DNA of 64,000 nt, taken from contig CAJOFD010000007.1 in the NCBI GenBank assembly GCA_905233585.1, forward strand, positions 6,684-70,683. The letters run 5' to 3'. Shown here piece by piece: positions 4,110 to 14,457 of this stretch. This DNA is from an uncultured Bacteroidales bacterium (GTDB lineage: Bacteria; Bacteroidota; Bacteroidia; Bacteroidales; WCHB1-69). Made by a program: the position numbers and the translations under genes. Within the stretch, counting starts at the first letter, position 1. The number at the start of each line of letters is the position of its first letter. The notes under the pieces are model-generated. The model made no database searches. It had not been told where the DNA came from and saw only the letters and a list, made by a program, of their open reading frames with translations.

Positions 4110-4964
4110 TTAATATCTCTTTTTTCTCATATATCCCTTAATATGGTTTGCAAACTCTTCGCATGACTGATAACGCTCCGACGGATCCTTCGCCAAAGCA
4201 CGTTCCACAATGAACTGTAGATTTTGTGTGATTGGCGGGTAAAAACTACTCATCTGCGGAGTGGGGGCATACTTGACTTTTTCCTTGATTTCCGCAATGT
4301 TTTGTCGTGGATTTGGATTATCAGAGGTGAATGGCAACGTGCCTGTCAGCATCTCAAAAAGCATGATGCCAAGGGAAAAAATATCGGAGAATACTCCAAC
4401 ACGTCTTTTTTCTGACTGTTCAGGAGGCATATAGGCAGGCGTACCATATCCTTCGCCTGTTGTGCTGGTACTGGCACTTGACATACGCGAGGCAATACCT
4501 AAATCAATGAGTTTCAGCTTTCCATTTGGCTGTATCATCACATTGTTGGCTTTAATATCCAAATGCAATATTCTCTTTTGGTGCAGATACGCCACGGTAT
4601 CCAGAATTTCCAAAAACATCGGCAATGCTTTCTGCTCCGGAATAAGACCTATCTCCCTGTAAATGTAATTCTCAAGACTTCTTCCTTCAATGAATTCCAT
4701 AACGATGAACATTTGCTCGGTTTCTTTCATGTCAATAAAATCCACCAGCTTAGGGATATTCGGATGTGTCAGATACAAGTACATCTGTGTTTCCTCAATG
4801 AATTTCTGCTTGATAACAATATTCTTGAAATGCCTAATCTTCAGTTCCTTAATGGCCACAGGAAAACCGCTGCGCAAGTCTATACCCCAATAGACCTTTG
4901 CGGTTCCACCCTCTGCAATCAGATGGTCAACATGATACCACGGTATTTTGGGCAAGTCGTTCAT
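4110..4964 (-). CDS. Hanks-type Ser/Thr protein kinase (kinase domain only)
   Basis: 284 aa. It carries a Gly-rich loop EGGTAKVYWG, VAIKEL lysine, catalytic loop HLDIKANNVM (non-RD), DLG in place of DFG, and GTPAYMPPEQ as the APE-like motif. Confidence 0.88.
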   Translation of the reverse strand: MNDLPKIPWYHVDHLIAEGGTAKVYWGIDLRSGFPVAIKELKIRHFKNIVIKQKFIEETQMYLYLTHPNIPKLVDFIDMKETEQMFIVMEFIEGRSLENYIYREIGLIPEQKALPMFLEILDTVAYLHQKRILHLDIKANNVMIQPNGKLKLIDLGIASRMSSASTSTTGEGYGTPAYMPPEQSEKRRVGVFSDIFSLGIMLFEMLTGTLPFTSDNPNPRQNIAEIKEKVKYAPTPQMSSFYPPITQNLQFIVERALAKDPSERYQSCEEFANHIKGYMRKKRY

Positions 4965-4969
4965 AACCG

Positions 4970-6034
4970 TTATTCTTTAGACATTTTAGTAGTATCGGTG
5001 GAAGGTGTAGGAGTGGGCGTGGGAGTACTTTCAGCATTGGACTTCTTGTCATTGGAATTTTCTATGGAGTTTGCAAATGCCTCCATAGCATCAACAATTC
5101 TCTGCTGCTCGTCATCGGATGCAGCATTATATTTGTCCTCAATTGTCTTTTTCGTGCCACCTGCACCCCATCCTTGCTTATTGCAGAAGTCTTTTTCATG
5201 CCCTTTTATACTTTTCAGCGTGTTGTTGAAAAGTCTTTTCCTTGAATCCCTTTGGGATTTTGCAAGTTGTGCTTTAGTTGTTTGCAATTCCGTTCGTGCA
5301 GCGGTCAATTCTTTATTCACTGTGTCCAACTGGTTCTTAAGTTGAGTTGCTTCTTTTTCTTTTGCTGTTTCTTTTTCTTTTGCTTTTTTGGCTGCTTCAG
5401 CTGCATCTGCTGCTGCTTTTTTGGCTGCTTTGGCTGCTTCAGCTGCATCTGCTGCTGCTTTTTTGTCTTTGGCAGACTCAGACTCTGCAGCTTTCCGTGC
5501 TGCTCTATCGGCTTCTGCTTGAGCTCTGTCGGCAGCGGCTTGTTTTTCCGCTGCTTCTTTTGCTGCTTTATCAGCTGCAGATTGGGCTTCAGCATATTCC
5601 ATTGCCGCTTTGTCATAGTCTCTCTGGGAATTCTGTATCTGTTGTTCAAGTTCTTGTTCTTGTTTTGTGTCGTTAAGACATACTCCCCATATAACACCTC
5701 CGATTAATAATAACACCACGCTGGCCACGGCCCATGTCCACCATTTGCGATAGAATGGAATGGGGACCATGGTCCTACCACCTCCAGCAGAGGCAAAGTA
5801 GCCTTGCCATGGCAAAACAATGCTGCCAATCTTCACCTCGTCGCCCGGACGGATGACTGTTTGTCCTGATATACGTTTTCCATTGACGAATGTGCCGTTG
5901 GTGCTGTTCAGATCCATTACAGTGAAATTTCCATTATCGTCCTGCACAATCTGCAGATGATTACGGCTTACTTTCTCATCATTTATAATGATGTTATTGT
6001 TCTCCTTACTTCTTCCGATGGTTATTACTTTCAT
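4970..6034 (-). CDS. FHA-TM-coiled-coil protein (Ala/Lys/Glu-rich extracytoplasmic region)
   Basis: 354 aa. The N-terminal FHA domain reads ITIGRSKENNNIIIN..SRNHLQI..STNGTFVNGKRI..KIGSIVLPWQGYF. A TM segment follows (WWTWAVASVVLLLIGGVIWGV), then a long A/K/E-rich heptad-like region and a Thr/Pro-rich tail. Confidence 0.8.
   Translation of the reverse strand: MKVITIGRSKENNNIIINDEKVSRNHLQIVQDDNGNFTVMDLNSTNGTFVNGKRISGQTVIRPGDEVKIGSIVLPWQGYFASAGGGRTMVPIPFYRKWWTWAVASVVLLLIGGVIWGVCLNDTKQEQELEQQIQNSQRDYDKAAMEYAEAQSAADKAAKEAAEKQAAADRAQAEADRAARKAAESESAKDKKAAADAAEAAKAAKKAAADAAEAAKKAKEKETAKEKEATQLKNQLDTVNKELTAARTELQTTKAQLAKSQRDSRKRLFNNTLKSIKGHEKDFCNKQGWGAGGTKKTIEDKYNAASDDEQQRIVDAMEAFANSIENSNDKKSNAESTPTPTPTPSTDTTKMSKE
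5390..5464. repeat. Perfect 33-nt direct repeat (5390-5422 and 5432-5464) inside the coiled-coil region
   Basis: ggctgcttcagctgcatctgctgctgctttttt occurs twice, separated by 9 nt. On the minus strand it encodes KKAAADAAEAAK twice. Confidence 0.9.
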
Positions 6035-6038
6035 AACT

Positions 6039-7223
6039 TTATTTTTTATTTGTTTTCTTGTGACTGTTTGATCTATTAAAAATTCGACGACCTTTCCATT
6101 TATTTAGGTCTCTTTCTGTGATTTCTATGTCTTTATTAATCAAAGAATCTGTTTTTTGTGCTTGTTGCAAGGAATTCTCGGCTTGTTGCAATGTTGTTTC
6201 GGCTGCTGTTTTCTTCTTATGTGTTGCCTTATTCAAATTATCTTTATTGGCCGTGGATTGTGTTTTCAGATTGGCAACTTTGGATTCCAAGTTTCGGATT
6301 TTGCTTTCCACAAAGGAGTCCCAAGAGAAAAGGGCAACCAAAGCCAGTACGACAATAATGACAGCGGCAATGATAATTCTTTTCAAGGATTTCCGAGATG
6401 TATGTCGTTTGGGGTTGAAACTCTCGTACTTGCTTTCTTTCCACGCACTGCCGTCCACTTGAATAAGTTCAACAGTGCAATTGTCCTGACCTCCGGGTTG
6501 AACAGTTTCACCCTCCATTGCAAGATTAATCAGCAAATTGCCTTTATCTTCCAATTTCGAGTTTTGTCGCAGTACCTTTTCTATTGTTTTGTCAGGAATC
6601 ATGCCGGAGAGGCCATCGCTACAAATGAGGAAGATGTCGCCATTTTTGGGCTGAATAGGATTGTTATTCGGATTGAAAGACGGCTGAAGATTTTGAGTTA
6701 CACCCAAAGCCTTGAGAATACGGTTCTTGTTGGGATGATGTTCCGCCTCATCGTCTGTTATTGTACCTGCATCGACCAAAGTTTGCACGTATGAGTGGTC
6801 TTTGGTGATACGATGCAGTTTCTTCTCCTTGCCGAGATAGAGGTATATGCGGCTATCACCCACATGGGCAATCCACACCTCACTTCCTTGCATCAGCACG
6901 ATGCAGGCAGTCGTACCCATGCCTTTATATTCAGGATAGTCATTGGCAAAACCAAGAATCTGCATGTTTGCAAATTGCAATGCACCATTGAGAGCGACAA
7001 GCGGATCTGAATACTTTTCTTTCTTTAGATAACTGATGATGCTATCCACCGCAAGCGAAGAGGCTTTGGCACCACCCACATGGCCACCCATACCATCACA
7101 CACCACAAAAACGTCACCATTGGGAGTGTCCAATGCCATATCGTGGCTGTCTTCCTGTGCCTTACGCACATTGCCAATAACACCCTTCTTGAAAATGTTG
7201 TTTCTATTGGTTACTAAACTCAT
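6039..7223 (-). CDS. PP2C (PPM) family Ser/Thr phosphatase with a TM segment and C-terminal coiled coil
   Basis: 394 aa. PPM motifs are VVCDGMGGHVGG, HVGDSRIY, LICSDGL and GGQDNCTV. A TM segment follows (IIIAAVIIVVLALVALFSW), then a heptad-like tail. Confidence 0.88.
   Translation of the reverse strand: MSLVTNRNNIFKKGVIGNVRKAQEDSHDMALDTPNGDVFVVCDGMGGHVGGAKASSLAVDSIISYLKKEKYSDPLVALNGALQFANMQILGFANDYPEYKGMGTTACIVLMQGSEVWIAHVGDSRIYLYLGKEKKLHRITKDHSYVQTLVDAGTITDDEAEHHPNKNRILKALGVTQNLQPSFNPNNNPIQPKNGDIFLICSDGLSGMIPDKTIEKVLRQNSKLEDKGNLLINLAMEGETVQPGGQDNCTVELIQVDGSAWKESKYESFNPKRHTSRKSLKRIIIAAVIIVVLALVALFSWDSFVESKIRNLESKVANLKTQSTANKDNLNKATHKKKTAAETTLQQAENSLQQAQKTDSLINKDIEITERDLNKWKGRRIFNRSNSHKKTNKK
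7069..7223. repeat. Copy A of a ~155-nt dispersed repeat (5' end of the PP2C gene)
   Basis: Hand alignment to 9645-9799 gives about 16 mismatches in 155 nt. The repeat ends at the shared start codon. Confidence 0.85.
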
Positions 7224-7247
7224 AACTGTATTTTTTATTATACTCCG

Positions 7248-8717
7248 TTATTCAATAAACCATGCTGGTTCGAGACTGCCGTCATTCTTCCATTTTATAA
7301 ATGACAGTTGTCCAAAATCAGGATGGAATTCAATTTCATTTTTCAAAGGATATTGTACCAACAATCTATGGTACTCCATGGCAAAGCTGTCCATATCTCG
7401 GAAACGATTTGTGGGATCAAATGCCAGACATTTTTCCAAGAAAGCCTTCCAATATGGAATACCCTCTTTGTTGTCAATATTTGAATCAGAATAATCAATA
7501 TAAATCATTGGTTCAACAAGCAGTTTTACATTTTTTGTTTTTATACCACCGGTTGGGATTATATAATCAGAAATTTTTCCATAGACAATCCCATCCACAA
7601 TAGAAAGAATAACCAGACCGAGATTATAGATATCTGTTGCAGGAGTTACCGGTTGTGTTAAAATTTGTTCTGGTGCACAGAAGTTGGTTGTCATGCCCGC
7701 TGAAACTTCTCCCATCTTTGTGCAGACAGGGTCAAATGGATGTAATCCGTCATGCAGACACAGTATGTTCTGAGGTTTCAGGTCGCAGTGAACATATCCA
7801 GACTTATGCAATTGCGACAAATCCTTGAACAAAGTCGTCAATGCGTTGGCTAATCGTTGCCTTGCCACTTTGTAATACACCGACAACTTATTGCCATTAG
7901 CAACCTGAACCATTTGTTTCTTGTATTCGTCAGCGTGAATATCCGTTGAACACACGGTATCACCCATTTTTTTTATCTGTACCGTTGGCTGAAAGATAGA
8001 GATGTCTTCACTTTGAAAACTCTCAATTGATTTGACCGATGTTGGATTATCTCTATCAGGCAGACACAAGACCTTGACCTGGCTGTCATGAAGAGAAATG
8101 GAGATATACTTTTTGCTTTCCACCTCCCGACGAGCATCTTGAAACTCTTTGCTCCCATATTCTTCTCCGTATGAAGCACATGCGGCGGTATTCATTGCCT
8201 TGCCTTCACACGAAGCGCTTCTATAACCATTTTCTGCATACAGATTGTCCAATTTGCTTCGCTCTCCCAAAATCTGCGTTAACAATGTCGCAGGAACTAT
8301 CGAACTGACAGTCCTGTCCGATAGGTAATAATTCCCTATAAGCCCATTTTGTATGTTATTAAATCGGTATATGTTTTTCTTCAACAACTCCTGATTAACC
8401 ATACTATCAATTTCCGACATTTTGCGGCTAATGGCGAGGGGAATATTACCTCGATCACAACCTAATACGGATGAGACTTTGTATTGCATATCTAATTCTT
8501 CCCTTTTCCTTTTAATCTCAATATATCTGTTTAAACCATCTGGAGCTGTATCAAACCGAAGGATAACATTAGCTTGTGCATTCAAGTCACTTGCTTGGTT
8601 TGAAATTGGATTAAAAACCGTACCTTCCACAATCTTTTCTGACTGCCGTTGTCCACAATGAGGACAATAATCTCCTTGATAATAGTGCCCGTTGGGACAT
8701 TGTTTGTACTCGCTCAT
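7248..8717 (-). CDS. Zn-ribbon protein with a C-terminal atypical protein-kinase-like domain
   Basis: 489 aa with an N-terminal CPNGHYYQGDYCPHCG. The C-terminal region has a catalytic loop VHCDLKPQNILC and FCAPEQ (APE). I could not recognise a Gly-rich loop or a DFG motif. Confidence 0.65.
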   Translation of the reverse strand: MSEYKQCPNGHYYQGDYCPHCGQRQSEKIVEGTVFNPISNQASDLNAQANVILRFDTAPDGLNRYIEIKRKREELDMQYKVSSVLGCDRGNIPLAISRKMSEIDSMVNQELLKKNIYRFNNIQNGLIGNYYLSDRTVSSIVPATLLTQILGERSKLDNLYAENGYRSASCEGKAMNTAACASYGEEYGSKEFQDARREVESKKYISISLHDSQVKVLCLPDRDNPTSVKSIESFQSEDISIFQPTVQIKKMGDTVCSTDIHADEYKKQMVQVANGNKLSVYYKVARQRLANALTTLFKDLSQLHKSGYVHCDLKPQNILCLHDGLHPFDPVCTKMGEVSAGMTTNFCAPEQILTQPVTPATDIYNLGLVILSIVDGIVYGKISDYIIPTGGIKTKNVKLLVEPMIYIDYSDSNIDNKEGIPYWKAFLEKCLAFDPTNRFRDMDSFAMEYHRLLVQYPLKNEIEFHPDFGQLSFIKWKNDGSLEPAWFIE

Positions 8718-8747
8718 ATCATAATATTATTATGTCATTAAAACTAA

Positions 8748-9320
8748 TCATTTACTGATTTTATGTTTCGTATATCTAATTGGTTGCTCTTTTCTGCCGT
8801 AAACATAAACCGTATAACCTTGAGGTGTATTATCTTCAGCCAATATTAAGGTATCTTTCGTGAGTTTTTTTATCTCATAAATCTCTTTTTGGGGGCAATA
8901 TAATACTAACACAGAATCGCATAATATCTCATACTTCACACCTGAAAGTAAATAAAGTTCACGGATTAGGTTGTTGAACTCAACTGTGTCAGCAACATTG
9001 TTGTTTGTCTTTTCATTAACGACCTCCTCGTTGTTTTCTTCCCAATAGACGACTTCCTCTTCATAAGATTCCTCAAAGGTGTTGTTAAAAGCTTCAGCAT
9101 CCACAAGTGCTTCTTCCACGACTTCTTCATCGTCCATAGAGTTAAAGACAATACATTTATTTTTGTCATACAGAACACCTTCAAGATATTCCTCATTCGA
9201 AGGTATTTGAACCTCTTGCAAATACCACGTTCCTCCTATTAGCTTTTGTTTGGATGATTGTGCGAATATGAATTCACCAACAATCACTAACAGAATAACT
9301 ATTATGGATGCTTTTTTCAT
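8748..9320 (-). CDS. Secreted acidic protein of unknown function
   Basis: The ORF is open to 9344 (GTG). ATG at 9320 gives a signal-peptide-like MKKASIIVILLVIVGEFIFAQ. The middle region is Glu-rich (EEVVEEALVDAE..EESYEEEVVYWEENNEEVV). The start is uncertain (9320/9329/9344). Confidence 0.55.
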   Translation of the reverse strand: MKKASIIVILLVIVGEFIFAQSSKQKLIGGTWYLQEVQIPSNEEYLEGVLYDKNKCIVFNSMDDEEVVEEALVDAEAFNNTFEESYEEEVVYWEENNEEVVNEKTNNNVADTVEFNNLIRELYLLSGVKYEILCDSVLVLYCPQKEIYEIKKLTKDTLILAEDNTPQGYTVYVYGRKEQPIRYTKHKISK

Positions 9321-9346
9321 ATTATACATCTTTACATTTTTCACTT

Positions 9347-9799
9347 CTATTGTTCCAACACTCTATAAAAACTCCCAGGCAAATACACATTCTTGATATC
9401 ATTCTCGATGGCTTTGAAGAACAACGGGGCAATTTCCTGCGGGGTGAAGCCTGCAATACCGCAGCCAATCTCTGTGACCAAGAAATCCAGTTCGCCATGC
9501 ACTGTGGCGAATTGCAGGAAATCATCCACGTAGGGTTTGATAGTTTCCACACCGCCCTGCATAGTCGGGATGGCGTATGTCTTTCCATACATGCCCACTC
9601 CCTTTCCCCATACAGCTCCGAAGTGCTCGTATGCCATACGGGCAGCCCCACCCACATGGCCCCCCATGCCGTCACACACCACAAAAACGTCACCATTCGG
9701 TGTGTCCAATGCCATGTCGTGACTATCTTCCTGTGCCTTTCGGACATTGCCGACAACGCCTTTCTTAAAAATGTTGTTTCTATTGGTTACTAAACTCAT
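9347..9799 (-). CDS. Chimeric ORF: duplicated PP2C N-terminus (52 aa) fused to a small phage-associated-type domain (YAIPT..GCGIAGF)
   Basis: The first 52 aa match the PP2C N-terminus with one I->V change. The remainder (ARMAYEHFGAVWGKGVGMYGKTYAIPT..FLVTEIGCGIAGFTPQEIAPLF) resembles, from memory, the family NCBI labels A1S_2505 phage non-structural protein. It lacks that family's own N-terminal strand. Confidence 0.6.
   Translation of the reverse strand: MSLVTNRNNIFKKGVVGNVRKAQEDSHDMALDTPNGDVFVVCDGMGGHVGGAARMAYEHFGAVWGKGVGMYGKTYAIPTMQGGVETIKPYVDDFLQFATVHGELDFLVTEIGCGIAGFTPQEIAPLFFKAIENDIKNVYLPGSFYRVLEQ
9645..9799. repeat. Copy B of the ~155-nt dispersed repeat (5' end of the chimeric ORF)
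   Basis: See copy A (7069-7223). Confidence 0.85.
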
Positions 9800-9845
9800 A
9801 ATAATGTTTTTAATTAATGTTCATATTGCTACCTCAAATGCCTTT

Positions 9846-10451
9846 TTAAAGGGTTGTTCTTTCGTCAAATAGTTTACTTTCATCATAATCGGAATAATAG
9901 TCCAACTGTTTTAAGATTGGAGAGTTTTGTAACACCTTTATCAAGTGTTTCAATTCATTTGCACTGAGGAAAACACGACCATTTTTATTTGTTATCTCAA
10001 CACCAGAAAGCACCGTATTGACACCTCCTTCTCCAGGAGACATCGTGCGTTCATGATGATTAAAGCCAGCAGCACATACTCTCACACGAGTTTGCCTTTC
10101 ACGATTATCCGGACCTGTTGACCCCATATCAATGTGCATTTCAATATTAAAGTCGTGTCCGCAGCTTTCGCATTTGCCATCCCAATGATAGTTCCACGGA
10201 ACAATGCGATCCCTTATGTCATATAGTGACGACACAACGATTCCAAATTCTGGCCGAGGAATTCCCTTTCTCAGTGGCTGTCCGCAATGAGGACAGGAGG
10301 GTATCGTCATCAATTCTGCAACATGTTGGTGTAAATATTCACGTCCATCAAAAGGATTAACGTTCCTGATTGAATAATACTGCGTCGGACAGTACGGACA
10401 CGTGTCGCCTTCATATAAGTGGCCTCGGGGGCATTGTTTTAGTGTGCTCAT
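9846..10451 (-). CDS. Multi-Zn-ribbon protein of unknown function
   Basis: 201 aa. The N-terminal CPRGHLYEGDTCPYCP is paralogous to the heads of the 489-aa and 205-aa proteins. Further Cys pairs are CPHCG and CESCGH. Confidence 0.6.
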   Translation of the reverse strand: MSTLKQCPRGHLYEGDTCPYCPTQYYSIRNVNPFDGREYLHQHVAELMTIPSCPHCGQPLRKGIPRPEFGIVVSSLYDIRDRIVPWNYHWDGKCESCGHDFNIEMHIDMGSTGPDNRERQTRVRVCAAGFNHHERTMSPGEGGVNTVLSGVEITNKNGRVFLSANELKHLIKVLQNSPILKQLDYYSDYDESKLFDERTTL

Positions 10452-10459
10452 ATTAATTT

Positions 10460-11071
10460 TTATTTAAACCCAGTTACTTTCCATTTGCCATTGATTTTTT
10501 CGAGCAAGACTTTCACGTTAGTATCACCATAGCGTGTTATATCTTGGAATCCGACATGATTAACTTCAGAAGTTGGACTACACGTTACATATACCTTTTT
10601 AATATTTATGCCAGCACGAGGTTCGCTTTCCCCTGGCAAATAAACCATACCGTTTTTAACATATTGCTCAATACCACCATACCTGCTTCCACCTTCCTCA
10701 TAATACCATTCGTCCTGAACATAGGCGATGGTGACCTCATATTCCCTGAATAATGCAGGAAGCCAAGATAAAATAGCAAGCTTCCCTGTAGAAAAGTAAT
10801 CCACAAGGGAATTTATACCATATTCACCATAATCTTTTCGAATGTAAGGATCTGTATAATATATCTTACCCCTAATATCCATATACGACCTCATCTTGTC
10901 AAAATCTTTTTGCAAGATCGCACATATAAAATTATAGGTAATGGCAGCAGGGGTTTTACATTCAGCGATTTCCTGATTGCTTAATCTTAGCACAATCGGA
11001 TTGGGGTATTGAGCATATAGGGTTCCCAAAAACATCACTGACAAAACGATAATTGCGAATAACTTTTTCAT
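10460..11071 (-). CDS. Secreted protein of unknown function
   Basis: 203 aa with a signal-peptide-like MKKLFAIIVLSVMFLGTLYAQ. It sits 8 nt from the next gene, and I recognised no motif. Confidence 0.55.
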   Translation of the reverse strand: MKKLFAIIVLSVMFLGTLYAQYPNPIVLRLSNQEIAECKTPAAITYNFICAILQKDFDKMRSYMDIRGKIYYTDPYIRKDYGEYGINSLVDYFSTGKLAILSWLPALFREYEVTIAYVQDEWYYEEGGSRYGGIEQYVKNGMVYLPGESEPRAGINIKKVYVTCSPTSEVNHVGFQDITRYGDTNVKVLLEKINGKWKVTGFK

Positions 11072-11099: not shown

Positions 11100-12914
11100 T
11101 TAATTTTTCGTTGAAACTCTGGTCAGATTATCTGATCTGAAATCAGACTTTCCGTCATATTTCCATACAGACCATTGACCATCTTTTGCACACCCCCCAA
11201 TATAAAAAGAGTATCCATCTGTCACAACCGACATAGCCTGATACCTTAATTTATCATTTACTTGGAAACCTTCCCCATTGACCCAAACCATTGCATTTGA
11301 GTTAGGATTCTGTACAATTCCAGTCACAACAATCACCCCAGCATTGTTCACTGCAACAGATTGTGCACTACCATATTCCACATTTCCCAGAGATATAAAA
11401 TCACCATCCTTCCATAAAGCGGGTTTGTTATTCACTTCTCCTGCCACAAATATATCTCCTTTATCGGTGAGAAAAATAGAATTGGCACGACTCATCTCCA
11501 AATTATAAGCCACTTCCTCGCCATTTCCTCGTAACACATACAGAAAGGCTTCTCCAGAGAAATATTCACCTGTATATCCTGCCACATATATGTTATCTCC
11601 CTTTACAACCACCGAATTTGCAGATCCGCTTTCGCCTAAACTGTTCGGAACACCATTTTTCCACAGAGTGGGTTGTCCGTCTTTCTGTCCTGCAACATAC
11701 ACATCATTCCTATCTACATATACACAATTTGCCTCCGCTTGTCCCAAGCCCTCCGCCAACATTTGCCTCTCTCCATTCTTCCATAGCAGAGCCTCTCCTT
11801 TATCATTCTCATCTATCGTAACATATACATCATTACCTGAAACGAACACTGATGTTGCTTTATTAAAATTACCCATTTCTCCGATTTCTTGGGCAACACC
11901 ATTCTTCCATAATGTTGGAACATCAGTTTCTGACGTTTGTTCACAAGTGCTACCGACAGCATAAACGTCATTTCCCGAAACGAACACAGAATTAATATCG
12001 GTATAAGGTCTGCTTGTCTTACTGTCGGATTTGTGAAATAGCAATATTGCCACAACAATCACAACAGCAATAATGCTACCCAAAACAAGCCACAACCATG
12101 TTTTTTTCAACCCTTGCGTTTTTGCAGGGGTACTATGATCATACTCCAACAAATTCCAGCAGCTGACACCGTTCTTTTTGATTTGCAAGATAGCCCAAAG
12201 AATAATCAGTGATATTGGGGTTACTATTACCTGAATGATAGGATTTAGGTCAAGACTCAAACCTATTAACATGTAATCCTGCTTAACAAGGTTTATCATG
12301 ATTACATTGACAATGGCAAGTATTATTGCTGTAACAACAGCTCCCCAAAAGCCTATTTTCTTCCATTTCAAAAGCAAAGAGTAACTAATAATCATACAAA
12401 TCCCTCCTATTACGGAAACAATTTGCCAAATTAGAATATGAGGATGTATCGCCTCGGAAAACGGAGTAATATCTATGCCATTGGCAACAAGATCCATGCC
12501 TAAATACCCTAAATTTGTCAAGTTTTGATATGTAAACAGATTCAATATGATTCCTAAAACACTACTCACAATCCCAAGCCACAACCAAAATATCACAAAA
12601 CCATGACGTTCTTTAATGCGAGGAGCGTACGGGATTCCTGCTTCCGGTGCCACTGACGCAACTGTTTCAGAGTCTTCAAAGTATTGCTTCCATGGGATAG
12701 TACTATTGCCAATACGTACCACATCATTTATGTTCAGATTGATTTCCCCACTTATTTTCTGTCCATTAACGTATGTGCCGTTAGTACTTCCAAAATCCGA
12801 CAAGGTGAAATGCCCGTCATCATGTTGGATGATTTGCATGTGATGACGTGACGCATGCGGATCTTTAACCATCACATCGTTTTCTTCGCTTCTTCCTATT
12901 GTAATTACCTTCAT
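11100..12914 (-). CDS. FHA - polytopic membrane - repeat (beta-propeller-like) sensor protein
   Basis: ATG at 12914 (MKVITIGRSEEND..) fits the upstream stop at 12934. The FHA domain reads SRHHMQI..STNGTYVNGQKI..RIGNSTIPWKQYF. Several hydrophobic segments follow. After them come about seven ~40-aa repeats of the type SVFVSGNDVYAVG....PTLWKNG (nt ~11127-11969). Confidence 0.78.
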   Translation of the reverse strand: MKVITIGRSEENDVMVKDPHASRHHMQIIQHDDGHFTLSDFGSTNGTYVNGQKISGEINLNINDVVRIGNSTIPWKQYFEDSETVASVAPEAGIPYAPRIKERHGFVIFWLWLGIVSSVLGIILNLFTYQNLTNLGYLGMDLVANGIDITPFSEAIHPHILIWQIVSVIGGICMIISYSLLLKWKKIGFWGAVVTAIILAIVNVIMINLVKQDYMLIGLSLDLNPIIQVIVTPISLIILWAILQIKKNGVSCWNLLEYDHSTPAKTQGLKKTWLWLVLGSIIAVVIVVAILLFHKSDSKTSRPYTDINSVFVSGNDVYAVGSTCEQTSETDVPTLWKNGVAQEIGEMGNFNKATSVFVSGNDVYVTIDENDKGEALLWKNGERQMLAEGLGQAEANCVYVDRNDVYVAGQKDGQPTLWKNGVPNSLGESGSANSVVVKGDNIYVAGYTGEYFSGEAFLYVLRGNGEEVAYNLEMSRANSIFLTDKGDIFVAGEVNNKPALWKDGDFISLGNVEYGSAQSVAVNNAGVIVVTGIVQNPNSNAMVWVNGEGFQVNDKLRYQAMSVVTDGYSFYIGGCAKDGQWSVWKYDGKSDFRSDNLTRVSTKN

Positions 12915-12933
12915 AAATCCATGTGTGTTTGTA

Positions 12934-14457
12934 TTATACATAAAAAATAATGAGTGCTTCTCCCAAACCAATTATATCTCCGCTTTTTAGTGTGCATTGC
13001 TGGAAAAACTGTCCGTTTACAATAACACCTTGCGTGTATGATTTACTTTTGTTCGTTATATCAAACGCTGTCCCATTAAAAGTTATTTCAGCGTGAAATC
13101 CCGACACTGTCTTATTGTTAAGCACAACATCATTGTTTTCGTTGCGTCCGAGTGTCGTATGGATATTGTTTATAGTGTATGTGAATGATGTGTCAGGTAT
13201 TTTGCATTGTAGATGCGGAAACAGATTTTTCGTCTGCATAAGGTTTGTCAAACGTTTTTCCTTTTCAGCACGCTCTTTTTCAGCGGCTTCAGCGGCTATC
13301 CGTCTCTTTTCTTCCTCTTGCTGACGTTTCAACTCTTCCAATTGCTCGTTTGATTGGTCTATGCCCTTTTGAAGTATTTCATTTTTCTTGTTGCGTTCAG
13401 CAATGCTGCGGCGGATGAACCAAACAGAAAAAATAACAATAGCAATAAAAATCACCACAAAGACAATAAACAATGCCGTATTTTCCTCTATCCAATCACA
13501 AAATGTCATATCGGGAGCATTGAAAGCCGCCAACAACTGCGGTACTTTATTGACAGTAAGCCCTATACGATGGGGTTTACCATCTCTTTTGGCTTTTGTT
13601 GTGAAAGTTATTTCATAATCATTGCCATAGCAACGAGAGTCAAAATTATAATAATAGTTTCGCAAAACAGCAAGAGCTTCATTTACATCGCATGAAGATG
13701 CATGAAGACCATAAGTACTTTCCGATAGAGAATTTACCTCTGGAGCATCTCCAGCAAGAGGATATTTCACTACATAAATAGGAATATCTGCATCCAAAGC
13801 ATTTTTTCTAACACTTTCCATCTCTGTACTTGCCCCAGCCGCTTTCACATTGAGTCCAGCAGTTACTACAATAAGGATACAAGTACGATTAGATGGTTCT
13901 TTCTTTAATAATTCAATACCTTCATTAATAGCAAGATACAAATCAGATTGTTGGGAAAACTCTTTGAAAAATTCACTACTTCTAGTATAACTATATACTG
14001 TATCTTTCAATTGTCGAGAATCTGAAGAAAAAGATTTTAATAGAGGTTCGGTTACAGTCCGTTTGCTACTTTTTTTCCGATTGAACACTGCAACATTAAA
14101 CATATCGGAATCGTTCAATAAAGTTTCGTTAAAGAACCGAGATAGCAATTGGCGTGTAAATTCCGTCTGTTTACTATGACTAACCATGTCTTCCCATAAA
14201 AACAATATACTTTTGTTTTGATTGACATTGCCTTTGGAAAGCACTTTAAAATTAAAATCAATAGGCTGATTATCTTCATCTGTCAAAACGAATTGAGACT
14301 TATCAAGCACATCAGGATTGGCTGAATTCCATACAAATGAAATTTCCGGATATTTTTCAGTATTGTATTTACTTTTAAGACCTCTTGTATTTTGAGCCCA
14401 CAGTTGAGCCGTAAGCAAAAATGCACCGAATACAATATATAGATATACACGTTTCAT
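12934..14457 (-). CDS. Signal peptide - vWA-like domain - TM - coiled coil - C-terminal FHA protein
   Basis: ATG at 14457 (MKRVYLYIVFGAFLLTAQLWAQ). The vWA-like strand pattern has a degenerate MIDAS (LFLWEDMVSHS, ILIVVTAGLN, IPIYVVKYP). A TM segment follows (ALFIVFVVIFIAIVIFSVWFI), then an EEEKRR-rich helix. The C-terminal FHA domain reads TTLGRNENNDVVL..SGFHAEI..GVIVNGQ. Confidence 0.72.
   Translation of the reverse strand: MKRVYLYIVFGAFLLTAQLWAQNTRGLKSKYNTEKYPEISFVWNSANPDVLDKSQFVLTDEDNQPIDFNFKVLSKGNVNQNKSILFLWEDMVSHSKQTEFTRQLLSRFFNETLLNDSDMFNVAVFNRKKSSKRTVTEPLLKSFSSDSRQLKDTVYSYTRSSEFFKEFSQQSDLYLAINEGIELLKKEPSNRTCILIVVTAGLNVKAAGASTEMESVRKNALDADIPIYVVKYPLAGDAPEVNSLSESTYGLHASSCDVNEALAVLRNYYYNFDSRCYGNDYEITFTTKAKRDGKPHRIGLTVNKVPQLLAAFNAPDMTFCDWIEENTALFIVFVVIFIAIVIFSVWFIRRSIAERNKKNEILQKGIDQSNEQLEELKRQQEEEKRRIAAEAAEKERAEKEKRLTNLMQTKNLFPHLQCKIPDTSFTYTINNIHTTLGRNENNDVVLNNKTVSGFHAEITFNGTAFDITNKSKSYTQGVIVNGQFFQQCTLKSGDIIGLGEALIIFYV

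Follow-up and report, generated by a model that had tools for sequence, protein, structure and literature searches.

The stretch of DNA analysed here (64,000 nucleotides, nt; called the window) comes from contig CAJOFD010000007.1 of the assembly GCA_905233585.1 of an uncultured Bacteroidales bacterium. On its minus strand it carries a chimeric open reading frame (ORF) of 150 amino acids (aa), in which the start of a PP2C phosphatase gene is joined in frame to the 3' part of an A1S_2505-like gene. The chimera is part of a tight, operon-like minus-strand cluster (window 4.9-14.5 kb), and its context is that of a ruminant-gut Bacteroidales strain with FHA, Ser/Thr-kinase and PP2C genes. The parts of the chimeric gene and the phosphatase gene to which it is related are the following, all on the minus strand.

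9347..9799 (-): chimeric ORF, 150 aa, with ATG at 9797-9799 and TAG at 9347-9349, open throughout
9648..9799 (-): PP2C-derived 5' part (allele b), codons 1-50 plus 2 nt
9347..9649 (-): A1S_2505-like (macro-like) 3' part, codons 51-150 plus stop
9648..9649 (-): right crossover, a 2-nt GG microhomology at which the parental identities end
9800..9817 (-): leader of the chimera, 18 nt, TTAATTAAAAACATTATT, ahead of the ATG, which came with the PP2C-b piece
9818..9826 (-): left junction, 9 nt, ATATGAACA, holding the vestigial A1S start codon
9768-9801 = 7192-7225 (-): exact 34-nt repeat, made up of 32 nt from the start of the coding sequence and the 2 nt upstream of it
7072..7223 (-): start (5' end) of the resident PP2C gene (allele a), the second copy
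6039-7223 (-): resident full-length PP2C, 394 aa, Stp1/IreP-type, 229.6 bits

Composition and joints of the chimeric gene

Comparing 9644-9799 with 7068-7223 without gaps, we found 17 mismatches in 156 nt (52 codons). Within the 155 nt of this duplication for which the initial annotation had counted about 16 by hand, there are 16, in full agreement. All but one of the 17 mismatches are synonymous third-position changes (16/17), the exception being A46G, which leads to I16V. Counting according to Nei and Gojobori gave 16 synonymous differences (Sd) at 33 synonymous sites and 1 non-synonymous difference (Nd) at 123 non-synonymous sites, corresponding to proportions of 0.48 (pS) and 0.008 (pN) and a dN/dS of ~0.01 (Fisher p 7e-12), and the nearly pure silent divergence described at first sight is therefore real. 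The similarity also ends where it had been placed, with the refinement that only 9648-9799 is derived from PP2C: codons 51-52 (G, A) with the mismatches 9647 and 9644 belong to the A1S parent and encode the same amino acids in both copies because both families carry G-G-A there. The PP2C-derived segment thus differs from the resident PP2C at 15 positions, 14 synonymous ones and I16V, and its 50 residues are a genuine PP2C N-terminus including, as had been noted, the first PPM metal-binding motif D-G-M-G-G-H. The resulting direct repeats (7072-7223 and 9648-9799; 152 nt, 90% identical) flank 2.58 kb with the 3' part of the chimera, a lipoprotein gene and a kinase gene. If the repeats recombined with each other, the kinase would be lost and a single PP2C would be re-established behind the Zn-ribbon gene that lies upstream of the chimera.

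The second half of the product had initially been assigned to the A1S_2505 family, and this holds well above the cutoff: NCBIfam NF049995 A1S_2505_Nterm is matched by residues 43-144 (119.8 bits, cutoff 45, E 5.9e-35; model positions 7-109 of 109), and the chimera also matches the PHROG family phrog_2072 of unknown function (E 4.4e-26). Its closest relatives are intact proteins of 131-139 aa starting with MNKKRISSNRITRLAPNEVFVFGSNLQGAHGGGAARMAYEHF. The term 'truncated phage-type domain' fits only partly, as phage members exist (phrog_2072) but the gene is here a conserved chromosomal member of the FHA/kinase/PP2C cluster. In the relatives (L-numbers denote the compared contigs, P-numbers the compared proteins and X-numbers public runs) the family has no prophage setting and is fixed in this cluster of L001, L002, L010, L017, L019 and L020-L024, with intact genes at L001:6098-6511, L002:9072-9476, L010:6880-7296, L017:4193-4597, L019:433-840 and L020:5711-6109. 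A Pfam search with the chimera and the intact members returned no family even at E 10, and the literature on A1S_2505 holds incidental mentions of the locus tag only. Some A1S-like proteins of 182-186 aa (P0038, P0047, P0091 and about five others) have a C-terminal CxC...CPYCG Zn-ribbon extension, which may explain why the NCBIfam model is named 'Nterm'.

At the right crossover the sequence switches from one parent to the other within two nucleotides. PP2C-b reads ..CATGTGGGTGG/TGCCAAA and intact A1S ..CATGGTGGCGG/GGCTGCCCGT, and the chimera reads ..CATGTGGGTGG/GGCTGCCCGT; identity to the PP2C-b contigs stops at 9648 and identity to the intact A1S contigs (X2, X4, X11 and X24), the loose ends of which encode ..GSNLQGAHGG, stops at 9649. 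The crossover lies within the patchy similarity of the GxHxGGA motif common to both families (PNEVFVFGSNLQGAHGGGA against PNGDVFVVCDGM-GGHVGGA). The earlier proposal of recombination at a Gly-rich motif is correct insofar as a G-x-H-x-G-G-A loop comes after a beta-strand in either family (PP2C DVFVVCDGMGGHVGGA, intact A1S EVFVFGSNLQGAHGGGA), but the exact nucleotide microhomology is GG only.

On the left side, the homology to intact loci, in which the Zn-ribbon gene is followed by A1S, spans the intergenic spacer and stops after ATGAACA at 9818, with identities of 93% to L019 over 9818-9919 and 89% to L017/L018. The vestigial A1S ATG (9822-9824) is still present and opens a remnant ORF M-N-I-N-stop. 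The 9-mer also occurs at the 3' end of A1S genes ending with ..YEH and a stop codon, and together with the leader it gives a 19-nt exact match (9808-9826) to such an A1S 3' end plus spacer in L020-L024. The leader resembles the PP2C leaders of other alleles (X23, L012, L013), and in L019 PP2C follows directly after A1S. Both novel joints show microhomology with parents identifiable on either side, which are X11, X4 and X2 for A1S, X15 and X23 for PP2C-b, and L019, L017 and L020 for the left flank.

The contig is metagenome-assembled and the exact 34-nt repeat at both gene starts makes a k=31 graph ambiguous, so that an assembly or chimeric-read artefact, with the sequences of two strains joined in silico, has to be considered. 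Of the words sampled from 9200-9950, 99% are present in run X1, and in an independent k=31 assembly of this run an unbranched unitig of 2602 bp (depth 15.4) equals window 7196-9797 with 0 differences and leads across the fusion point, which speaks against the misassembly considered at the outset. A second unitig of 13,636 bp (depth 13.9) equals the window from 9772 onward including the left scar, also with 0 differences, and a third one of 1786 bp (depth 10.9) contains the PP2C body; the three depths fit one linear copy, and their evenness speaks against the artefact. The unitigs break exactly at the 34-nt repeat (9772-9797 overlap), which is the sole ambiguity of the graph and leaves the existence of the ORF unaffected. 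Unbranched Logan unitigs enclose both the fusion point (9648/9649) and the left scar (9818). Furthermore, the parents share only GG at the crossover and therefore no k-mer overlap could have made the joint. The junction is not an assembly artefact, and we regard a join made in silico as extremely improbable.

Sources of the two halves and age of the fusion

A search for runs holding 9645-9830 led to X15 (0.78 of the sampled words) and X23 (0.44), both of them gut metagenomes. In X15 a contig of 237 bp is identical to 9648-9803 (0/156 differences) and then continues with 65 nt of PP2C body, TGCCAAAGCCTCTTCGCTTGCAGTGGATAG (..GGAKASSLAVD), and not with A1S; these 65 nt differ from the window PP2C at a single position. 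The X23 contigs show 0 differences over 9648-9687 and 9711-9803 and run on into 300 nt of PP2C body (GGAKASSLAVD), with 35 differences to the window PP2C (allele a) located mostly at third codon positions. The upstream leader of the PP2C-b contigs from both runs (..ATAATAGAAACATATATT ATG) is related to that of the chimera but not identical. To judge from these contigs, the 152 nt of the chimera are a naturally occurring PP2C allele, named allele b here, V16 included.

Alleles a and c occur in normal full-length genes of same-species contigs, a in L011, L012 and L016 with the kinase upstream and c in L013-L015. As a control, this pair of full-length alleles differs by 11 synonymous and 1 non-synonymous changes over the same 150 nt in which a and b differ by 14 and 1, and at 5 positions allele b agrees with c and not with a. 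The PP2C 5' alleles in circulation number at least three (a, b and c) and are 8-10% apart.

For the A1S half, unfused counterparts were found as well. The differences to intact genes are 0/106 nt for X11, 4/247 for X4 and 9/284 for X2. Past the junction the X11 allele continues as ..GGCAGCAACTTGCAGGGTGCGCATGGTGGC, encoding GSNLQGAHGG, and the intact genes of X4 and X2 likewise run on as ..GSNLQGAHGG beyond 9649. X13 is identical to the window (0/177) across the A1S 3' end and the start of the lipoprotein gene (9216-9392).

As both halves of the chimera match unfused genes elsewhere, the 15 differences from the resident PP2C pre-date the fusion; a divergence that arose after it does not agree with halves differing from unfused genes at 0/156 (X15) and 0/106 (X11) positions. 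Since allele b is identical to the 5' ends of full-length PP2C genes, the silent differences represent allelic divergence between real phosphatase genes. The silent-only pattern then reflects ordinary purifying selection on full-length PP2C orthologues or alleles, and it says nothing about selection on the chimera. The conclusion drawn initially from the silent excess, namely that the peptide is kept by selection in both genes, has to be given up, because the PP2C part is 100% identical to the X15/X23 PP2C and the A1S part is 0-3% different from intact genes. With identical or nearly identical unfused counterparts for both halves the number of substitutions since the fusion is about 0, and the chimera appears to be a very young fusion. 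In an alignment of 107 family members, 67 columns show a conservation of at least 90%; the A1S half of the chimera deviates at none of them and contains no private residues, but such an undecayed C-terminal part fits youth as well as selection and cannot decide between them.

The distribution of the chimera is narrow. Junction words reach 0.99 in X1 and at most 0.24 in the other runs, so that the junction was found in no public run other than X1. There was no hybrid among the 119 closest A1S and 122 closest PP2C proteins (0/241), a degenerate junction pattern (DGMGGHVGGAARMAYE) gave 0 matches in the JGI metagenome contigs and viral contigs, a 35-nt b-specific pattern gave 0 matches in a JGI metagenome scan, and an exact look-up of chimera-encoding contigs found nothing on record. 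A conservation of the chimera in other genomes or samples, as the established gene of the initial annotation would lead one to expect, was thus not seen, and the intact parental genes were found in the relatives (A1S in the L loci and PP2C as alleles a and c).

Predicted product and surrounding cluster

In the intact A1S family E18, F20, V21, F22, G23, S24, N25, G28, H30 and G33 are invariant in 107 members. The AlphaFold (AF2) model of the intact protein P0002 has a predicted local distance difference test score (pLDDT) of 88.9 and a predicted template modelling score (pTM) of 0.86. Using this model as a Foldseek query, the top 50 PDB matches are almost all macrodomains (probability 0.75-1.0, TMq 0.40-0.68, E 3e-3 to 3e-2), including an Oceanobacillus macrodomain, PARP14 macro 1, Poa1p, E. 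coli YmdB, MacroD2 and TARG1/C6orf130 (4j5q, TM 0.68). In the viral library BFVD the true phage homologues come first, followed by macro, PARG and ADP-ribose-phosphatase proteins. Some crAss-like phage homologues of the family are fused to helicase or ART-polyvalent proteins. A PDB sequence-profile search with the family gave chance matches only, and an hhalign comparison of the family profile with an approximate TARG1 sequence was not significant (probability 0.7%). On the basis of the predicted model the intact A1S_2505/phrog_2072 family appears to have a macrodomain-like fold. We take FGSN..GxHGGGA and EIGCGIAGF of the family to resemble the two ADP-ribose-binding loops of macrodomains. Together with the place of the family in kinase/PP2C clusters and the fusions in crAss-like phages, the predicted fold hints at ADP-ribose-related chemistry linked to phospho-signalling.

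Against the loop E-x-F-V-F-G-S-N-x-x-G-x-H-G-G-G-A, which is found in 107/107 close members, the chimera reads D-V-F-V-V-C-D-G-M-(gap)-G-G-H-V-G-G-A. F22, G23, S24, N25 and G31 are replaced, with V-C-D-G standing for F-G-S-N, a one-residue deletion and a V for the nearly invariant G31; among the relatives GSN is kept in 118/119. At the same alignment depth the AF2 model of the chimera reaches a pLDDT of 58.5 and a pTM of 0.56, and residues 1-55 are below 50, although AF2 confidence is no measure of stability. The PP2C (Stp1/IreP) profile scores the chimera with 34.5 bits (cutoff 230) and covers residues 16-65 only, and there is no Pfam PP2C match (PF13672, PF00481) for it. Because the invariant F-G-S-N residues of the ligand loop are lost, the product is most likely inactive or unstable and probably an inert hybrid. 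The operon transcript would still include it, and the PP2C leader would still provide for its translation; none of the metatranscriptome runs holds the chimera. The 64-kb window contains no further A1S-like gene, and the event presumably knocked out the only visible macro-like gene copy of the strain. The suggested role as a decoy, or as a competitor for whatever binds the N-terminus of the phosphatase, found no support, since the 50 residues comprise, judged from the PPM fold, core beta-strands plus the first metal motif and not a separable docking peptide.

The other genes of the cluster are listed below.

4.9-14.5 kb cluster (-): FHA proteins, the first genes of the cluster, before the 203-aa protein
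10460-11071 (-): 203-aa protein
9846..10451 (-): Zn-ribbon protein, 201 aa, upstream neighbour of the chimera
8748-9344 (-): putative lipoprotein, 198 aa, downstream neighbour of the chimera
7248-8717 (-): Zn-ribbon Ser/Thr kinase, downstream of the lipoprotein gene
4970-6034 (-): further FHA protein, downstream of PP2C

In the relatives L001, L017, L019 and L020 the Zn-ribbon gene is directly followed by the intact A1S gene, and the lipoprotein and kinase genes (7248..9344) are what natively follows the A1S gene where the more common arrangement is present. X12 (with a 26-kb contig) and X7 show the order A1S-lipoprotein-kinase-PP2C with 94-95% identity to the window; in both, as in L010, a further gene separates the Zn-ribbon gene from A1S. 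From the PP2C start downstream, L013-L015 agree with the window at 96-100% identity, but their upstream genes are unrelated and encode a thioredoxin-like protein and proteins of 611 and 190 aa (compared region L013:1-3815). The left flank is common to X21 and the window only as far down as 10461, which is a gene boundary; X45 carries allele a and has a portion of the Zn-ribbon gene in common with the window. The cluster (window 7224-10461) can be described as a patchwork of gene-sized cassettes whose breakpoints coincide with gene boundaries. The chimera marks the very point at which a rare left segment meets a common right one.

Several further observations concern individual genes of the cluster. 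The 203-aa protein (10460-11071(-)) matches both halves of the 415-aa gene of L010 (L010:5610-6857), which has an internal tandem duplication; this gene is located between the Zn-ribbon gene and A1S in L010, X2, X7 and X12, and the order of the two genes is reversed in the window. A deletion between a second tandem PP2C paralogue and A1S, suggested by a size difference of 1185 nt in X2, was rejected, as the extra DNA in L010, X7 and X12 is the 415-aa duplicated lipoprotein-like gene; there is no second PP2C in the window or in the X1 unitigs. The starts of the kinase (MSEYKQCPNGHYYQGDYCPHCG, 8646-8717(-)) and of the 201-aa protein (MSTLKQCPRGHLYEGDTCPYCP, 10380-10451(-)) are the same Zn-ribbon module, a similar piece of which is found in the 611-aa gene of L013 (L013:2190-2241), and the module appears to be shuffled among the genes of the cluster. 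An FHA protein of 623 aa (11100-12971(-)) has predicted membrane segments and a C-terminal array of repeats of ~45 aa, each reading L-W-K-N-G ... N-D-V-Y-V-(A/S)-G and possibly beta-propeller-like; no Pfam match beyond FHA was found for it. The FHA protein at 4970-6034(-) contains a long low-complexity stretch rich in Ala, Lys and Glu (AAKEAAEKQAAADRAQAEADRAARKAAE...), and the plus-strand ORFs 4563-5345, 5252-5707 and 5347-5676, which overlap its gene, look like shadow ORFs of the coding strand. The same applies to a 161-aa ORF opposite the chimera (9308-9793(+)).

Origin of the fusion and comparison with known systems

Taken together, the chimera is real and most likely a recent by-product of illegitimate recombination in a highly mosaic locus, its silent differences having been imported with the PP2C allele of another strain. 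A piece of ~170 nt, the 18-nt leader plus the first 152 nt of PP2C, replaces codons 3-33 of the resident A1S gene. In the simplest case this piece would stem from an arrangement 'A1S - spacer - PP2C-b', with PP2C-b in the donor or recipient being preceded by an A1S gene ending ..YEH plus TTAAAAACATTATT, and the 9-nt repeat at both the start and the end of A1S could have mediated the loss of the whole A1S copy. One route would be homology-facilitated illegitimate recombination (HFIR) between a 'Zn-ribbon - A1S - PP2C-b' recipient and an incoming 'A1S - lipoprotein - kinase - PP2C-a', after which the upstream A1S copy would have been deleted between the ATATGAACA repeats. Another one would be a single patch insertion with microhomology at both ends, either similar to SPDIR (illegitimate recombination of the short-patch double type; bioRxiv 10.1101/2023.11.22.568220) or by template switching. 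The conclusion on selection is the same on every route.

Several points weigh against this explanation. The support for the junction consists of a unitig assembly and not of raw reads, and run X1 is probably the same as the source of the window. The exact PP2C-b donor was not found: the X15/X23 leader matches that of the chimera exactly to -4 only, and with one indel to about -17, and the contigs of both runs are short (237-340 bp) and of low depth (2.5-4.4), so that they show only part of the PP2C-b context. Strictly speaking, the X15 and X23 strains might also carry the chimera, or their PP2C 5' ends might have been converted from one. A conversion from the chimera, with the boundary of the a/b divergence at the fusion point, was considered and is weakened by the X23 PP2C, which is divergent across the body; the 65 nt after the junction in the X15 and window PP2C are simply conserved. 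In addition, the ORF is intact and in frame with a plausible translation start and 100 undecayed C-terminal residues, and its loss of function would follow from the lost invariant residues and from a model of low confidence.

An intact ORF within the operon, a leader of its own, a dN/dS of ~0.01 between the copies and an A1S part keeping every conserved residue would also be expected for the established gene of the initial annotation, which would have arisen by an old duplication with its 52-residue peptide under purifying selection in both genes and serving as a decoy or competitor. However, the pre-existing PP2C allele with 0 differences in X15 and X23 fully explains the divergence, and an A1S half that is only 0-3% different is incompatible with the time needed for a pS of ~0.45 in the other half. 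The junction is moreover present in one run only, the invariant G-S-N loop of the macro-like domain is lost and the 50 residues seem to be core elements of the PPM fold instead of a docking module, and we consider this reading very unlikely. It is somewhat less unlikely, albeit still improbable, that the origin was intragenomic, the strain's own PP2C, then carrying allele b, having supplied the patch through template switching or ectopic conversion before its 5' end was exchanged for allele a by homologous recombination with another strain. The PP2C gene is located 2.5 kb away on the same strand of a heavily recombining locus, its start is a recurrent breakpoint (L013 vs window), and in the X15 PP2C a b-type 5' end is followed by a body that is 1/65 nt off allele a. 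Yet such an origin needs an extra replacement event, and the 19-nt match of leader and 9-mer to L020 implies a donor with A1S directly before PP2C, as in L019, whereas the window has the kinase before PP2C and L011, L012 and L016 all have allele a behind the kinase. Just as doubtful as the established gene is a functional new gene, in which the PP2C strand plus Gly loop (VFVVCDGMGGHVGGA) would take the structural place of the macro-like domain's first strand and loop (VFVFGSNLQGAHGGGA). The hybrid would then be stable and either have a changed ligand specificity or act in a dominant-negative way, and would rewire the FHA/kinase/PP2C signalling module of the strain. A separate and likewise doubtful idea is that the 152-nt repeats allow the reversible loss and regain of the kinase-lipoprotein cassette.

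If the chimera is a recent by-product of recombination with an imported allele, as we favour, a dN/dS of 0.01 between a gene and its fragment copy looks like a maintained peptide until the population context reveals the signal as imported, and the same trap would exist for any scan of recombining bacteria for partial duplicates that look 'conserved'. At single-nucleotide resolution, the locus further shows how an in-frame fusion could arise by illegitimate recombination, the crossover lying at a motif, beta-strand plus Gly-rich loop, which is common to two unrelated folds by coincidence. Of greater interest might be a by-product of the analysis, the predicted macrodomain-like fold of A1S_2505/phrog_2072, a conserved member of FHA-rich Ser/Thr-kinase/PP2C clusters of ruminant-gut Bacteroidales.

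In comparison with Stp1/IreP PP2C phosphatases, the first 50 residues of the chimera are a bona fide PP2C N-terminus but the other ~200 residues of the catalytic domain are absent, and because of this absence the chimera cannot be a phosphatase. With the A1S_2505_Nterm/phrog_2072 family it shares the C-terminal 100 residues, which are 85-91% identical to intact members of 132-139 aa and keep the conserved positions. It differs from this family in having 50 PP2C residues in place of the first 34, in the missing invariant E-x-F-V-F-G-S-N strand and loop, and in its chromosomal location within a signalling cluster instead of a phage. The intact A1S family in turn resembles macrodomains at the level of the predicted fold, but with ~132 aa it is smaller than classical macrodomains and has no match to them at the sequence level. 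As in HFIR and SPDIR, short microhomologies (9 nt and 2 nt) join an ectopic segment to the locus, donor and resident alleles are different and the surroundings are mosaic; in contrast to SPDIR, the patch of ~170 nt is longer than typical SPDIR microindels and the event is known here from sequence alone.

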